Assembly (NCBI RefSeq): GCF_045037415.1
Contig: NZ_CP173438.1
Direction: 5' to 3' (one strand)
Length of the DNA stretch: 64,000 nucleotides
Source: Escherichia coli
GTDB taxonomy: Bacteria; Pseudomonadota; Gammaproteobacteria; Enterobacterales; Enterobacteriaceae
Position numbers and translations under genes: made by a program. The notes beneath the pieces were generated by a model that saw nothing but the letters and a program-made list of their open reading frames with translations, did no database searches and had not been told where the DNA came from. The stretch's first letter is position 1. Every line of letters begins with the position of its first letter. Of the stretch, positions 2,780 through 62,206 are shown piece by piece.

Positions 2780-3157
2780 TTACAAATATAGATAAAGTCT
2801 GACTTTGTGCGCCCCCAGAAAATTGGCGCTGCCGTACAGCGTGACCGCCGAATGTGCGGGAATGGTAACGCTGCGTGGCCTTTCCAGAGGATGCATCTCC
2901 AGCCCTCTGGCGTCATACCAGTAAAAACGATAATGAACGGTAACGGGTTCTTGCCTTTCGTTATAAAGCGTTGAGGATGCTGAAGGTTGAATATCAGATG
3001 TCGAAAGGACGGGCTTTTCTGCACTGATGCCCGCAGCCAATAAAGATGACTCCATCACCAGCGATTGCTCATCATTCACCGGAATTTCCGGATGTGAACG
3101 ACAGCCCACCAGCACTAACAACGCCAGAGACACCAGCCCAAAGCATCCTTTTCTCAT
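2780..3157 (-). CDS. ycfL: lipoprotein YcfL
   Basis: 125 aa ORF MRKGCFGLVSLALLVLVGC... with lipobox; synteny between lpoB and hinT. Confidence 0.85.
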   Translation of the reverse strand: MRKGCFGLVSLALLVLVGCRSHPEIPVNDEQSLVMESSLLAAGISAEKPVLSTSDIQPSASSTLYNERQEPVTVHYRFYWYDARGLEMHPLERPRSVTIPAHSAVTLYGSANFLGAHKVRLYLYL

Positions 3158-3159
3158 CG

Positions 3160-3519
3160 TTACAGACCTTTATGCGCCAGCATTGGTCCCAGCGGACGGC
3201 CACCCAACAAGTGCATATGGATGTGGTAAACCTCTTGTCCGCCATGGCGGTTGGTGTTCATGATCAGACGATAGCCATCTTCGGCAATACCTTCTTGCTC
3301 AGCAATTTTTGCCGCTACGGTGATCATGCGTCCCAGCGCCTGCTCATGCTCAGCTGACACGTCGTTCACAGTCGGAATGAGGATATTCGGAATGATCAGA
3401 ATATGCGTTGGCGCTTGCGGCGAAATATCGCGAAACGCCGTTACCAGATCATCCTGGTAGACGATATCGGAGGGGATCTCACGACGAATAATTTTGCTGA
3501 ATATAGTTTCTTCTGCCAC
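3160..3519 (-). CDS. hinT: HIT-family purine nucleoside phosphoramidase
   Basis: ORF contains HIT motif HIHMHLLGG; ORF track begins at a TTG at 3535-3537; I place the start at GTG 3517-3519 ([16 protein letters not shown], 119 aa). Confidence 0.85.
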
Positions 3520-3730
3520 GACATTTTCCTTTTTCAAATAGCCATGCGTTGCGCCATGCTACGCCGCGCCACACTGCGAGTATAGAGTATGGTCGAGTTA
3601 AACCTGCTCTTTCAACCTTAACTCACGATTTCTTAAGCAAAAAACCGTTTTGCTGCCGTATATATCGCCATTATTCCCATTTCTGCCTGCGAATGCGCTG
3701 AAAAGACATTTTCTGTTTGGTTTACACACC

Positions 3731-3770
3731 AAATATGAATGCGTATATTTCTCATTTGCATTTACATACA
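3731..3770 (+). promoter_or_regulatory. candidate Fur operator / promoter region of fhuE
   Basis: AT-rich segment ...atgaatgcgtatatttctcatttgcatttac... about 90-120 bp upstream of the fhuE ATG; partial match to the GATAATGATAATCATTATC iron box; fhuE is a known Fur-repressed gene. Confidence 0.4.
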
Positions 3771-3852
3771 AAATTATTCGCACACTAAATATAACCGCTC
3801 ATCACCCTGCTCCGGCATGAGCCTGACGCCAACATAAACCAAGAGATTTCAA

Positions 3853-6042
3853 ATGCTTTCGACACAATTTAACAGGGATAATCAACATCAAGCCATCATC
3901 AAACCGTCACTCCTTGCCGGTTGCATAGCACTGGCACTATTACCTTCCGCCGCTTTTGCTGCACCAGCCACTGAAGAAACGGTGATTGTTGAGGGTTCAG
4001 CCACAGCCCCAGATGATGGCGAAAATGATTACAACGTAACGTCTACCTCTGCGGGTACAAAAATGCAGATGACTCAACGTGATATTCCTCAGTCGGTCAC
4101 TATTGTTAGCCAGCAGCGGATGGAAGATCAGCAGTTACAAACGCTGGGCGAAGTGATGGAAAACACGCTGGGGATCAGCAAAAGTCAGGCGGATTCCGAT
4201 CGTGCTCTTTATTATTCCCGCGGATTCCAGATCGATAACTATATGGTTGATGGTATCCCCACCTATTTTGAATCGCGCTGGAATCTGGGCGACGCACTTT
4301 CTGATATGGCACTGTTTGAACGCGTAGAAGTAGTGCGTGGCGCGACAGGCCTCATGACCGGGACGGGTAATCCATCTGCGGCAATTAATATGGTTCGAAA
4401 ACACGCGACCAGTCGTGAATTTAAAGGCGATGTCTCGGCGGAATACGGTAGCTGGAACAAAGAACGGTATGTGGCGGATTTACAAAGCCCACTCACCGAA
4501 GACGGTAAAATCCGCGCACGAATTGTCGGCGGCTACCAGAATAACGACTCATGGCTGGACCGCTACAACAGTGAAAAGACCTTCTTCTCCGGCATTGTCG
4601 ATGCTGATTTAGGCGATCTTACGATGCTTTCAGCCGGTTACGAATATCAGCGTATTGATGTTAATAGCCCAACCTGGGGCGGTTTACCGCGCTGGAATAC
4701 TGATGGCAGCAGCAACAGTTACGATCGCGCACGCAGTACCGCACCTGACTGGGCGTACAACGATAAAGAGATCAACAAGGTCTTTATGACCCTGAAGCAG
4801 CGGTTTGCTGATACCTGGCAAGCGACGCTGAATGCCACCCACTCTGAAGTCGAATTTGACAGCAAAATGATGTATGTCGATGCCTATGTAAACAAAGCGG
4901 ATGGTATGCTGGTTGGGCCATACAGTAATTATGGCCCTGGTTTTGATTATGTCGGAGGCACCGGTTGGAACAGCGGCAAACGTAAAGTTGATGCGCTGGA
5001 TCTGTTCGCTGACGGTAGTTATGAATTGTTTGGTCGTCAGCACAATTTAATGTTTGGTGGCAGTTACAGCAAACAAAACAATCGTTACTTCAGTTCATGG
5101 GCCAACATTTTCCCGGATGAAATTGGCAGTTTCTACAACTTTAATGGCAATTTCCCACAAACCGACAGGTCACCACAGAGTCTGGCGCAGGACGATACCA
5201 CACATATGAAATCGTTATATGCTGCCACTCGTGTCACCCTTGCCGATCCGCTGCATCTGATCCTCGGCGCACGTTATACCAAGTGGCGGGTTGATACGCT
5301 GACTTACAGCATGGAGAAAAACCACACCACGCCTTATGCTGGACTGGTGTTTGACATCAATGATAACTGGTCGACCTACGCCAGCTATACCTCTATTTTT
5401 CAGCCGCAAAATGATCGTGACAGTTCAGGCAAATATCTGGCACCAATCACCGGTAACAACTACGAGCTGGGTCTGAAATCGGACTGGATGAATAGCCGTC
5501 TGACCACCACGTTAGCCATCTTCCGTATTGAGCAGGATAATGTCGCTCAGTCCACCGGTACACCTATCCCCGGCAGCAACGGCGAAACCGCCTATAAAGC
5601 GGTGGATGGGACAGTCAGTAAAGGTGTGGAATTTGAACTCAACGGCGCAATTACCGACAACTGGCAGCTGACGTTTGGCGCAACGCGCTATATTGCAGAG
5701 GATAACGAAGGAAACGCCGTTAATCCTAATCTGCCACGCACCACGGTTAAAATGTTCACCAGCTATCGGTTGCCTGTCATGCCAGAGTTGACGGTCGGCG
5801 GTGGTGTTAACTGGCAAAATCGCGTGTATACCGACACCGTGACACCGTATGGCACCTTCCGCGCCGAGCAAGGTAGCTACGCGCTGGTGGATCTCTTCAC
5901 CCGCTACCAGGTGACGAAAAACTTCTCGTTACAGGGGAACGTCAATAACCTGTTCGACAAAACCTACGATACCAACGTGGAAGGTTCTATTGTCTACGGC
6001 GCACCGCGTAATTTAAGCATTACCGGCACGTATCAATTCTGA
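3853..6042 (+). CDS. fhuE: TonB-dependent outer-membrane receptor for ferric coprogen / rhodotorulic acid
   Basis: 729 aa ORF with signal peptide, TonB box-like N-terminus and C-terminal aromatic residue (…TGTYQF) typical of TonB-dependent receptors. Confidence 0.95.
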   Translation: MLSTQFNRDNQHQAIIKPSLLAGCIALALLPSAAFAAPATEETVIVEGSATAPDDGENDYNVTSTSAGTKMQMTQRDIPQSVTIVSQQRMEDQQLQTLGEVMENTLGISKSQADSDRALYYSRGFQIDNYMVDGIPTYFESRWNLGDALSDMALFERVEVVRGATGLMTGTGNPSAAINMVRKHATSREFKGDVSAEYGSWNKERYVADLQSPLTEDGKIRARIVGGYQNNDSWLDRYNSEKTFFSGIVDADLGDLTMLSAGYEYQRIDVNSPTWGGLPRWNTDGSSNSYDRARSTAPDWAYNDKEINKVFMTLKQRFADTWQATLNATHSEVEFDSKMMYVDAYVNKADGMLVGPYSNYGPGFDYVGGTGWNSGKRKVDALDLFADGSYELFGRQHNLMFGGSYSKQNNRYFSSWANIFPDEIGSFYNFNGNFPQTDRSPQSLAQDDTTHMKSLYAATRVTLADPLHLILGARYTKWRVDTLTYSMEKNHTTPYAGLVFDINDNWSTYASYTSIFQPQNDRDSSGKYLAPITGNNYELGLKSDWMNSRLTTTLAIFRIEQDNVAQSTGTPIPGSNGETAYKAVDGTVSKGVEFELNGAITDNWQLTFGATRYIAEDNEGNAVNPNLPRTTVKMFTSYRLPVMPELTVGGGVNWQNRVYTDTVTPYGTFRAEQGSYALVDLFTRYQVTKNFSLQGNVNNLFDKTYDTNVEGSIVYGAPRNLSITGTYQF

Positions 6043-11294: not shown

Positions 11295-12104
11295 CTAATT
11301 CGGGCGCTCACAAAGTGGGGCTAAATATTCATATAACGTTGCTGACGAAAAGGAGACATCGCCACAGGCACGTACGGGCATCACTGGCATTAACGCATTA
11401 CAAATAACCATCTCATCTGCCTGCAACGCCTCTTCCAGAGAGGCTTGCACTTCGACAAGCTGATAAGAGGATTGTGCCAGCAAACGGATACAGAATTGTC
11501 GCATAATGCCGTTAACACCTGCCTGATCCAGTCGCGGCGTATAAACTACGTTGCCCTTCCGCCAGAACAAATTAGCCGCACAGCATTCCGTAACCCACCC
11601 TTCGCTGTCAAGGACCAGCGCCTCATCAGCGTTTGTCTGCTCAAGATGAGAGCGGATCAATACTTGCTCAAGCCGATTAAGATGTTTAATACCTGCAAGA
11701 TGAGGATTGCGCCCCAGCCGCACCGGGCTTAGCGCCAACGTCATCCCTTCGTTACGCAAACGGTCGTAATGTGCAGGATAAGCCGTAACGGAGAGAATCC
11801 GCGTTGCCGGTCCACTGTTCAATGTGCTGTACCCTCGCCCGCCACTACCGCGACTGATCACGACTTTCAGTACACCATTTTGCTGTTCTGCTGCCAGCGT
11901 TTTCATCTCTTGTTCAAGCTGAGGCCAGAAGTCACAGGAAATCATCAACCGCTGACAAGCATCCTGTAGTCGCTGGATATGCGCCGATAACAAACTGACT
12001 TTACCGTCGATAACTCTGGCGGTGGTAAAACAACCATCACCAAACTGCGTTGCCCGATCGCTTACTGCCAGCGATTCCTGCTTATGACCGTTAATTAAGA
12101 ACAT
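11295..12104 (-). CDS. pabC: aminodeoxychorismate lyase
   Basis: 269 aa [31 protein letters not shown]...; class IV aminotransferase fold; synteny. Confidence 0.92.
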
Positions 12105-33966: not shown

Positions 33967-34383
33967 TTAATTTCCGCTCTGTAAAACGTTCATCATGCCT
34001 TTAATTTGCCCGCTCAACGCGCTAAGGCTCATCTGGTATTGCAGGCTGTTATCGGCAAACTGGGTGCGTTCGCGATCCATATCGACAGTATTACCGTCAA
34101 GCGAAGGCTGGTCCGGAATACGGTATTGCAGTTCTGCGGAAGGAGGCGTCAGCGCCTGCGCCGGAATGTGTTGCGTTGAGGTCATCGTCAGAGCAACCAC
34201 ACTGGTTGCATCCCGTCCACGTTGCATGACTTTTTTAAGTTCACTGGCAAAATCGATATCGCGCGCCTGATAACCAGGGGTATCGGCATTGGCGATGTTT
34301 GCTGCCAGCACTTCCTGACGCTGGGCGCGCAGATTGAGCGCCTCTTGTTGAAAACGTAAGGCGGCGTCGAGCTTATCGAGCAT
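33967..34383 (-). CDS. flgB: flagellar proximal rod protein
   Basis: 138 aa [48 protein letters not shown]... Confidence 0.96.
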
Positions 34384-34537
34384 ATCTCCTCCGCAGGTAT
34401 CAAAATTCTGCCATCAGCTTAAATGCCTTTACGCGCGCGTTATCGGCGGAATAAACGCAAAATGGGTCGCTATTTATGCCGTTGATGGTCATTGCGGACA
34501 GGTACAATTCACGTTGTAGAAATGGCTGGGGGCGAAA
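34384..34537. promoter_or_regulatory. divergent flgB / flgA promoter region (FlhDC-dependent class 2 promoters expected)
   Basis: 154 bp gap between divergently oriented flgB and flgA; contains a GCCGATAA-like element reading toward flgB (plus-strand ttatcggc near 34440). Confidence 0.6.
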
Positions 34538-35197
34538 ATGCTGACAATAAAACGTAGCGTGGCGATCATCGCGATACTCTTCAGTCCGTTAAGTACGGCG
34601 AGCAATCTCACATCGCAATTGCACAACTTTTTTAGCGCCCAACTCGCGGGGGTAAGTGATGAGGTTCGTGTTTCTATTCGTACAGCGCCCAATCTGCTAC
34701 CGCCGTGCGAGCAGCCATTGCTTTCGATGAGCAATAATTCCCGCCTGTGGGGCAATGTGAATGTGTTGGCACGCTGCGGTAACGACAAACGATATTTACA
34801 GGTTAATGTACAGGCCACAGGAAATTATGTGGTTGCCGCGATGCCCATTGTGCGTGGAGGAAAGCTGGAAGCTGGCAATGTCAAACTGAAACGCGGACGG
34901 CTGGATACCTTGCCACCGCGTACGGTGCTGGATATCAATCAACTTGTTGATGCCGTTAGCCTGCGCGATCTATCACCCGATCAACCTATCCAGTTAACCC
35001 ACTTTCGCCAGGCATGGCGGGTAAAAGCGGGACAACGCGTCAACGTTATCGCCAGCGGTGATGGGTTTAGCGCCAACGCAGAAGGTCAGGCGCTGAACAA
35101 TGCAGCCGTCGCACAGAATGCGCGGGTGCGCATGATATCGGGACAAGTGGTCAGCGGCGTTGTTGATGCAGATGGGAATATTCTTATAAACCTGTAA
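34538..35197 (+). CDS. flgA: flagellar P-ring assembly chaperone
   Basis: 219 aa ORF MLTIKRSVAIIAILFSPLSTASNLTSQ... with signal peptide. Confidence 0.93.
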   Translation: MLTIKRSVAIIAILFSPLSTASNLTSQLHNFFSAQLAGVSDEVRVSIRTAPNLLPPCEQPLLSMSNNSRLWGNVNVLARCGNDKRYLQVNVQATGNYVVAAMPIVRGGKLEAGNVKLKRGRLDTLPPRTVLDINQLVDAVSLRDLSPDQPIQLTHFRQAWRVKAGQRVNVIASGDGFSANAEGQALNNAAVAQNARVRMISGQVVSGVVDADGNILINL

Positions 35198-35202
35198 GCT
35201 GT

Positions 35203-35229
35203 TAAAGATTACCCGTCCCTTGCCGATAA
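35203..35229 (+). promoter_or_regulatory. sigma-28 (class 3) promoter of flgMN
   Basis: TAAAGATT (35203-35210) - 11 nt - GCCGATAA (35222-35229): near-perfect match to TAAAGTTT-N11-GCCGATAA, about 45 bp upstream of flgM. Confidence 0.8.
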
Positions 35230-35272
35230 ATAAGCAACACATGATAAAAGCGCCCTCAATGAGGAATAAACC

Positions 35273-42741: not shown

Positions 42742-42792
42742 TTATCCTTTGTGTCCGGCAAAAACATCCCTTCAGCCGGAGCATAGAGATTA

Positions 42793-51884: not shown

Positions 51885-51990
51885 TTGCCGGATGCGGCGT
51901 GAACGCCTTGCCAGACCCACAAAATCTTGCAAAATCAATAAATTGCAGGAACGATGTAGGCCTGATAAGCGTAGCGCATCAGGCAACTAC
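51885..51990. repeat. REP / BIME cluster downstream of opgH
   Basis: gccggatgcggcgtgaacgcc... and gtaggcctgataagcgtagcgcatcaggc, typical REP palindromes. Confidence 0.8.
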
Positions 51991-60499: not shown

Positions 60500-60958
60500 T
60501 TAGTACTGATGAGCGGTCGCGTTGTTACCAAAGCCAACCTGAGTGACGTTAACGCTGGAGTTAGATGCAGTCTGGTCAACAGCAGCACCGTTACCGCCAC
60601 CGAACTGTTTAACAGTCATAGTAGAATCTTTACCATTCCACTGATCAAGAGTAGCGCTGTTGCCGAAACCACGCTGAGTCAGATCGATTGAGCTGTCATC
60701 AGAACCTTGGCCAACATCTGCACCATTACCGCCGCCGTGCTGGGTAATGGTCAGATCAGAGTTGCGGGCGTCAGCTTGCAGAGCAAGAGCAGAGTTACCG
60801 CCACCGTACTGGTAAATATTCAGCTCTGAATTCGGGCCGCTGTTATTACCGCCACCACCGTGGTTGCCGCCACCGCCGCCGTACTGAGGAACAACACCTG
60901 CCAGAGCGCTACCGGAGAATACGATTGCTGCAATTGCTGCTACTTTTAAAAGTTTCAT
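60500..60958 (-). CDS. csgA: major curlin subunit
   Basis: 152 aa ORF with signal peptide and five imperfect repeats of the S-x5-Q-x-G-x-G-N-x-A-x3-Q type. Confidence 0.97.
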   Translation of the reverse strand: MKLLKVAAIAAIVFSGSALAGVVPQYGGGGGNHGGGGNNSGPNSELNIYQYGGGNSALALQADARNSDLTITQHGGGNGADVGQGSDDSSIDLTQRGFGNSATLDQWNGKDSTMTVKQFGGGNGAAVDQTASNSSVNVTQVGFGNNATAHQY

Positions 60959-61454: not shown

Positions 61455-62206
61455 GTTGTCACCCTGGACCTGGTCGTACATTTAAGAAATTAAATCATTT
61501 CAACTTGGTTGTTAACGCAACCCGTATTTTGTTAACGCTGCGTTACGATGGAAAGTATGTCTGCGGAAATATTTTTAATAACTCACCCGCGCGTTGTATT
61601 TTTCTTTTTTTGTTCATACCAAAGTATTAAAACCCACGTAAATACGCTGTTATCTACGCAAAAAATATTTTGTTTTCTTTTAAATCTCCGTTTTCCGCTA
61701 TCAAAAATCACCAGACAGTCATTCTTCTTGCCCGTCGCTGATTGCTGCGATATGTCTTGCGCACAAGCCGTGACAAACCTCGTCTTTTTGCAGTAAAAAA
61801 TTGTCCACGGTGGTATGGAGAAAAAACAAGAACGTTTTACATGACGAAAGGACTACAGCGAAATATTTTTTATATGCATTATTAGTAAGTTAGCACCATT
61901 TGTATGATTTTTTAAAATTGTGCAATAAAAACCAAATGTACAACTTTTCTATCATTTCTAAACTTAATAAAACCTTAAGATTAACATTTTAATATAACGA
62001 GTTACATTTAGTTACATGTTTAACACTTGATTTAAGATTTGTAATGGCTAGATTGAAATCAGATGTAATCCATTAGTTTTATATTTTACCCATTTAGGGC
62101 TGATTTATTACTACACACAGCAGTGCAACATCTGTCAGTACTTCTGGTGCTTCTATTTTAGAGGCAGCTGTCAGGTGTGCGAACAATAAAAAAGCGGGGT
62201 TTCATC
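61455..62206. promoter_or_regulatory. csgBAC / csgDEFG divergent intergenic regulatory region
   Basis: 752 bp strongly AT-rich non-coding gap between divergent csgB and csgD; in E. coli it is known to hold the csgB and csgD promoters, many regulator binding sites and the long csgD 5' UTR. Confidence 0.85.

Follow-up and report, generated by a model that had tools for sequence, protein, structure and literature searches.

Organisation of the divergent flgB-flgA control region of Escherichia coli: one FlhD4C2 box and a probable superimposed sigma-28/MarA layer

Described control regions and the flgB-flgA locus

A single CRP site driving two divergent promoters was reportedly described by El-Robh and Busby in 2002, and CRP at such promoters occupies one symmetric site of 22 bp, equidistant between the back-to-back promoters. 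The region between flgB and flgA of Escherichia coli is laid out in a like manner, the difference being that its activator is the FlhD4C2 heterohexamer and its site a 42-bp one centred near -53. The promoters of fliA and fliL resemble it in another respect: 56-63 bp separate the end of the FlhDC box from the start codon, and the same operon also has a sigma-28 promoter. However, at fliA and fliL the sigma-28 28-mer begins 8 bp downstream of the box, scores 15-19 bits and is positive in FliA ChIP-seq, whereas the flgA/flgB gap has its sigma-28 elements within the box, the arms serving as -10 and the centre as -35; they score 8-10 bits, gave no FliA ChIP-seq signal and are subject to occlusion by FlhD4C2. 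This contrast between placement inside and downstream of the box may help to reconcile the negative FliA ChIP-seq result with the positive in vitro data.

The gap between flgA and flgB is the well-studied E. coli class 2 flagellar control region and is already known in detail. We examined it in the window, by which we mean the whole 64-kb stretch of DNA analysed here. The flgAp/flgBp region of K-12 (Stafford et al. 2005; Klimova et al., NAR 2026, PMC12781870) comprises the same 154 bp, with 0 differences between MG1655 and the window, and all published oligonucleotides and box sequences map onto the gap. Since the gap sequence equals that of K-12, the published K-12 experiments apply directly to the window; over 451 bp the strain is 99.3% identical to K-12, and the differences all lie outside the gap. 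On identical sequence, others have shown experimentally that FlhDC binds in vivo and in vitro, that both operons depend on FlhDC, that sigma-28 polymerase transcribes in vitro, and that MarA leaves footprints and activates flgBP2. The consequence for genome annotation is therefore small, the region being a textbook one whose fine structure has been dissected experimentally on identical sequence; what is new here is the mapping onto window coordinates, the statistics and the restriction of the sigma-28 octamers to Escherichia.

An earlier note on this DNA had described divergent flgBCDEFGHIJ and flgAMN operons lying 154 bp apart, and its coordinates proved exact when compared with the open reading frame list and the RefSeq annotation. 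In the same list flgM and then flgN follow flgA, and flgA and flgB with a 154-bp gap recur in the RefSeq annotation of matching E. coli genomes. A scan of the whole window with Rfam gave no RNA family within the gap. Elsewhere in the window the matches above the gathering score were the rne 5' UTR element (20676-21012, plus strand), the SraB sRNA (18647-18815, minus), the PyrC leader (42743-42792, plus), ES056 (62061-62152, plus) and ES036 (51921-51963, plus).

Taking all lines of evidence together, we consider it highly probable that the gap is a divergent class 2 region with one FlhD4C2 site and a weaker sigma-28/MarA layer superimposed on it (Table 1). We propose that one FlhD4C2 complex on the palindrome would activate sigma-70 polymerase at both divergent promoters, flgBP1 (TAAGCT, start at ~34410) and flgAP1 (TACAAT, start at ~34516), each with a conserved -10, no usable -35 and a distance of ~53 bp from the box centre. 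In the weaker second layer the outer arms of the box would double as sigma-28 -10 elements, GCCGATAA toward flgB and GCCGTTGA toward flgA, with a central -35-like element common to flgBP2 and flgAP2. Because these P2 promoters lie inside the box they would be occluded by FlhD4C2, and MarA at 34448-34462 would distort the -11 base pair (34443), thereby letting sigma-28 polymerase open flgBP2. For the exact flgA starts and the weight that the sigma-28 layer carries in the cell, the model states what we infer.

Table 1. Features of the flgB-flgA region in window coordinates
Feature	Position	Strand	Basis
flgB coding sequence, first of flgBCDEFGHIJ	33967..34383	-	ORF list and RefSeq annotation of identical DNA
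flgB start codon ATG	34383->34381	-	Feature string check
flgB-flgA intergenic regulatory region, 154 bp	34384..34537	.	Equals K-12 MG1655 NC_000913.3 1130864-1131017
flgB Shine-Dalgarno GGAGGAG	34392->34386	-	Feature string check
flgBP1 (sigma-70, class 2) start	34407..34410	-	In vivo 34410; in vitro transcript offset 34407
flgBP1 -10 hexamer TAAGCT	34416..34421	-	Conserved T-A..C-T block, 18-species alignment
flgBP2 (sigma-28) start, in vitro definition	34432	-	Mismatch oligonucleotide base 34443 = -11; marbox consistent
GCCGATAA, flgBP2 -10 element and flgB-side outer arm of FlhDC box	34440..34447	-	Exact match; mutagenic primer
Single FlhD4C2 box, 42-bp imperfect palindrome	34442..34483	.	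Consensus scan, gSELEX table, ChIP-seq, 80-species conservation
MarA binding site (marbox), -16 to -30 of flgBP2	34448..34462	.	Position from PMC12781870
Shared -35-like element of flgAP2 and flgBP2	34459..34466	AAAATGGG plus, CCCATTTT minus	Placed by 28-mer geometry
GCCGTTGA, flgAP2 -10 (sigma-28) and flgA-side outer FlhDC arm	34478..34485	+	Mutagenic primer
flgAP2 start, estimated, +/-2 nt	34493	+	Analogy with flgBP2 -11 position
flgAP1 -10 hexamer TACAAT	34503..34508	+	TAnAnT at fixed offset, invariant alignment columns
flgAP1 (sigma-70, class 2) start, estimated, +/-2 nt	34516	+	23 nt downstream of flgAP2; fits TACAAT
flgA coding sequence, first of flgAMN	34538..35197	+	ORF list and RefSeq annotation

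The FlhD4C2 box and the sigma-70 promoters on its two sides

We scanned the whole window against the FlhDC consensus AAYGSSNNAAATAGCG-N10-12-CGCTATTTNNSSCRTT, which has 28 specified positions (quoted in PMC9962212). The best match in the 64 kb is the box between flgB and flgA, which agrees at 24/28 positions, 14/14 in the flgA-side half and 10/14 in the flgB-side half, with a spacer of 10 bp; its inner half-sites are AAATAGCG and CGTTTATT, and its outer arms are GCCGATAA on the flgB side and GCCGTTGA on the flgA side. A 22/28 match is the same box read with an 11-bp spacer, the next-best locus in the window reaches 21/28, and the maxima of 20 window shuffles are 19-21, so that the box is clearly non-random. 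Table 1 of the gSELEX study (PMC9962212) gives the identical 42 bases for the FlhDC box of flgA/flgB. Because the MEME-derived 'boxes' in that gSELEX table fit the consensus poorly, we rescanned the other E. coli class 2 promoters, among which the flgA/flgB box is the best match to the consensus (24/28 versus 19-20).

Occupancy and function of this box are established for K-12. The FlhD/FlhC ChIP-seq peak of Fitzgerald et al. is centred at 1130152 (NC_000913.2), which falls at approximately 34473 in the window, within the box, when the two coordinate systems are aligned through the flgM FliA motif, which both contain. In RNA-seq of flhD and flhC deletions from the same study, loss of flhD lowered flgA expression from 319 to 3 and flgB expression from 2664 to 9. 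Gel-shift (EMSA) and transcription assays in PMC12781870 show FlhD4C2 binding one site and activating both flgAP1 and flgBP1 in vitro. A further FlhDC ChIP-seq site reported by Fitzgerald et al., 1104400 (NC_000913.2), lies in csgC, upstream of ymdA, at ~60200 in the window; near it the consensus scan gave nothing above 19/28, the nearest match being 60893-60935, which fits the remark of those authors that the FlhDC motif is degenerate.

Class 2 promoters toward both genes, as the earlier note had expected, are borne out by the box together with conserved -10 hexamers on both of its sides. A scan for sigma-70 -35/-10 consensus pairs found none in the gap, its sole match (34541-34569) being inside flgA; the missing pair is as expected for activator-dependent promoters, which such a scan does not serve to locate, and what is found in the gap is the class 2 arrangement of recognisable -10 hexamers (TAAGCT, TACAAT) lacking a functional -35. 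The box is centred at 34462/34463 (34462.5), at a distance of 52.5 bp to the flgB transcription start and 53.5 bp to that of flgA. Counted from the in vivo flgB start it covers -32 to -73, and counted from the estimated flgA start -33 to -74; at flgBP1 and flgAP1 alike it adjoins the core promoter on the upstream side (roughly -30 to -75). The original mapping of these two promoters is attributed to Stafford and colleagues (2005).

SMRT-Cappable-seq gives a single start for b1073-b1077, at NC_000913.3 1130991, which corresponds to 34410 in the window and lies 5-6 nt downstream of TAAGCT. The in vitro transcripts reported in PMC12781870 measure 154 nt for flgAP2 versus 131 nt for flgAP1, and 141 nt for flgBP2 versus 116 nt for flgBP1; the transcript lengths put the flgBP1 start at 34407, a difference of 3 nt relative to the in vivo position. 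Comparison with mapped starts, as the earlier note had suggested, places the flgB start inside the gap; the Cappable-seq supplements and that of Romero et al. contain no flgA/flgB entries and yielded no in vivo start for flgA, and the flgA start in Table 1 is therefore an estimate.

The expectation of FlhD4C2-dependent promoters on both strands could also be read as calling for two boxes, one for each divergent promoter, and 154 bp does offer physical room for two 42-bp sites. We regard such an arrangement as extremely improbable. The scan gives one locus in the gap, the other matches in the window being at most 21/28 and within the shuffle range; the box is palindromic and equidistant from both starts; PMC12781870 has FlhD4C2 at a single site; and the cross-species alignment contains one conserved box, flanked directly by both -10 hexamers. 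What stands of the expectation is FlhDC-dependent control toward both genes; a separate box for each promoter gives way to one shared site.

Sigma-28 elements and the MarA site inside the box

A GCCGATAA-like element reading toward flgB had been noticed earlier as plus-strand ttatcggc near 34440. It lies at 34440-34447 and goes beyond mere likeness, being an exact GCCGATAA on the minus (flgB) strand and the same as the published -10 of flgBP2, to which the oligonucleotides of PMC12781870 match exactly. There, a mutagenic primer for the flgBP2 -10, TTGCGTTTATTCCGCGGCATAACGCGCGCGTAA, targets GCCGATAA, one for the flgAP2 -10, beginning GGTCGCTATTTATGCGGCTTGATGG, targets GCCGTTGA, and a mismatch oligonucleotide alters the base at 34443 in the window, its position -11. 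As described in that paper, the divergent sigma-28 promoters flgAP2 and flgBP2 share one -35, which at flgBP2 is 'particularly poor' in the words of the authors, and are repressed by FlhD4C2; sigma-28 polymerase transcribes both in vitro, and this is lost on mutation of the -10. Against the sigma-28 -10 GCCGATAA, flgBP2 matches at 8/8 positions and GCCGTTGA of flgAP2 at 6/8, and against the sigma-28 -35 TAAAGTTT the shared element, which lies 11 bp from either octamer, falls short in both directions, with 4/8 for CCCATTTT (flgBP2) and 3/8 for AAAATGGG (flgAP2). The coordinates of this shared -35 and of the flgA starts are our reconstruction from geometry and transcript lengths.

For scoring, a sigma-28 weight matrix was built from the 52 FliA ChIP-seq motifs of Fitzgerald et al. 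It recovers the class 3 promoters of flgM(N) (35203-35230, plus strand, 25.4 bits) and flgK(L) (27085->27058, minus strand, 20.0 bits), both identical to motifs in Table 2 of that study. By the same matrix flgBP2 reaches 9.8-10 bits and flgAP2 7.7-8 bits, neither exceeding the fifth-lowest value among the 52 bound sites, for which the median is 16.7. Of random 160-nt pieces drawn from the window, 3.5% have a best site of 10 bits or more. The 8-mer GCCGATAA has 8 occurrences in the window and is, taken alone, not beyond chance. As an arm of the box, chance origin of GCCGATAA can be rejected, since the box to which the octamer belongs is conserved and highly significant; for its sigma-28 likeness, chance origin is not fully rejected. 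A second exact GCCGATAA lies at 34049-34056 on the minus strand, in sense orientation inside flgB, within TCGCGAACGCACCCAGTTTGCCGATAAC (28-mer 34075->34048); it scores 12.2 bits, more than flgBP2, and is absent from the 52 FliA ChIP-seq sites. Likewise absent from the FliA ChIP-seq list are sigma-28-like matches at 11489-11516 (plus, 17.8 bits) and 1377->1350 (minus, 16.6 bits).

The classical marbox consensus is reportedly AYNGCACNNWNNRYYAAAY, from work by Martin and colleagues in 1999. Against this form the region matches at 9/14 positions at 34445-34463 (plus strand), a level that about 2.5% of window positions reach, and the gap contains two further places with a score of 10. The classical consensus thus does not single out the MarA site, and we discarded it as a means of locating it; the identity of the site rests on the published DNase I and KMnO4 footprints (PMC12781870). 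In that account MarA sits between the -10 and the -35 of flgBP2 and unpairs the -11 base pair, leading to promoter opening, and salicylate/MarA raises expression of flgB::lacZ, in plasmid lacZ fusions, only when flgBP2 is intact. Class I and class II marboxes are positioned upstream of a sigma-70 core promoter, whereas this site lies inside a sigma-28 promoter, at -16..-30, and the authors describe the action of MarA there as a different mechanism. The regulator is placed within a core promoter spacer whose length is already optimal, and on the account of PMC12781870 it unpairs the -11 base pair and does not realign the hexamers.

The P2 promoters are real in vitro; their use in vivo is contested and the literature conflicts. 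One reading holds that GCCGATAA functions only as an arm of the FlhDC box, its sigma-28 likeness being incidental and the P2 promoters making no meaningful contribution in living cells. It draws on the FliA ChIP-seq of Fitzgerald et al., which has no peak in the flgA-flgB gap, on matrix scores within the lowest ~8% of bound sites, on the 3.5-8% of random 160-nt pieces that attain a comparable best score, on the exact octamers being missing outside Escherichia while the box is conserved everywhere, and on the single in vivo flgB start on record, which speaks against the sigma-28 part of our own model as well. However, the in vitro transcription from both P2 promoters, abolished by the -10 mutations, and the need for intact flgBP2 in the salicylate/MarA effect speak against this reading, and Klimova et al. 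(PMC12781870) ascribe the negative ChIP result to occlusion by FlhD4C2. Furthermore, the flgB-side arm leaves the FlhDC consensus (SSCRTT) precisely at the base that perfects the sigma-28 -10: its FlhDC-consensus form would be GCCGTTAA, which differs from GCCGATAA at 34443 and lacks A-11. On balance we judge the box-arm explanation rather unlikely.

The opposite reading, in which flgA and flgB are driven in the cell chiefly by sigma-28, following the older dual FlhDC/FliA model of class 2 operons, finds some backing in a network model that assigns every class 2 gene to an FlhDC/FliA feed-forward loop and in the existence of the P2 promoters in vitro. Yet expression drops ~100-fold or more without FlhDC and FliA does not restore it, overexpression of FliA in an flhD deletion failing to rescue flgA or flgB expression (Fitzgerald et al., Fig. 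S6 legend). [quoted passage not shown] RNA-seq statements on a fliA deletion name only flhBAE, fliE and fliFGHIJK as unchanged, and not flgB. A leading role for sigma-28 is very improbable, and we retain the model of a single activating FlhD4C2 site with a subordinate sigma-28/MarA layer.

Conservation across Enterobacterales and within E. coli

We then compared FlgB-anchored loci from 80 species of Enterobacterales (81 sequences in the offset counts). The FlhDC box is present in all 80 species, agreeing with the consensus at 19-24 of 28 positions, and in most of them it ends 56-63 bp before the flgB ATG. An alignment of 18 species contains three conserved blocks, namely the flgAP1 -10, the box and the flgBP1 -10. 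On the flgA side a TAnAnT hexamer occurs at a fixed offset from the inner half-site in 79/81 sequences; on the flgB side TAAGCT or TATGCT does so in 48/81, most of the others being one-base shifts.

The flgA-flgB regions of Salmonella, Citrobacter, Enterobacter and other Enterobacterales likewise have one box, whose distance to the flgB ATG is nearly constant, and sigma-70 hexamers at fixed offsets on both sides, but differ from Escherichia in outer arms that lack an exact GCCGATAA or GCCGTTGA. Both exact octamers occur only in three Escherichia sequences, the window, the E. coli representative genome and E. albertii (E. fergusonii, E. marmotae and E. ruysiae are not among the 80 loci compared). 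Outside Escherichia the outer arms read GGCGATAA or GTCGATAA on the flgB side and TGCGTTGA on the flgA side, and sigma-28 scores mostly stay under 6.5 bits on the flgB side and under zero on the flgA side. Exceptions are Cedecea, where the flgBP2 position scores 11.2 bits, and a few loci of Yersinia and the Pantoea group, in which the best sigma-28 site (10.3-10.9 bits) is at a different position.

Based on this distribution we tentatively suggest, as a possibility somewhat short of an even chance, that the sigma-28/MarA layer of flgBP2 and flgAP2 is an Escherichia-specific addition that arose via 1-2 base changes in the arms of an ancient box. GGCGATAA or GTCGATAA would have become GCCGATAA, and TGCGTTGA would have become GCCGTTGA, with FlhDC control kept throughout. 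If so, the stress-linked control of hook-basal-body genes by MarA would be a recent regulatory gain and not a general enterobacterial feature. The presence of the octamers in Escherichia only, set against the conserved spacing of box and hexamers, bears in any case on the generality of the MarA/sigma-28 mechanism.

Within E. coli, 5425/5426 complete genomes match a 451-bp probe around the flgA/flgB gap, and a 54-bp core is free of mismatches in at least 5324/5425. In the blood isolate AF22 a G->T change at the equivalent of window position 34469 converts the FlhDC inner half-site CGCTATTT, otherwise perfect, into CTCTATTT; this genome has further changes at the equivalents of 34396 and 34409 and one extra G in the G-run before flgA. 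In E. coli Ecol_448 (NZ_CP015076.1, locus ~2790-5290) the match to the window stops at ~34539, the start of flgA, and is followed by Mu-like prophage genes (Mor activator, gp16 family), which suggests insertion of a transposable phage where flgA begins. Five plasmid-labelled records carry the flgA/flgB locus; among these the 'plasmid' p94_0962-1 (NZ_CP074792.1, 154,743 bp) holds flgI-flgB, flgAMN, murJ, rimJ and mdtH in chromosomal order and probably represents a piece of the chromosome that was wrongly labelled or excised.
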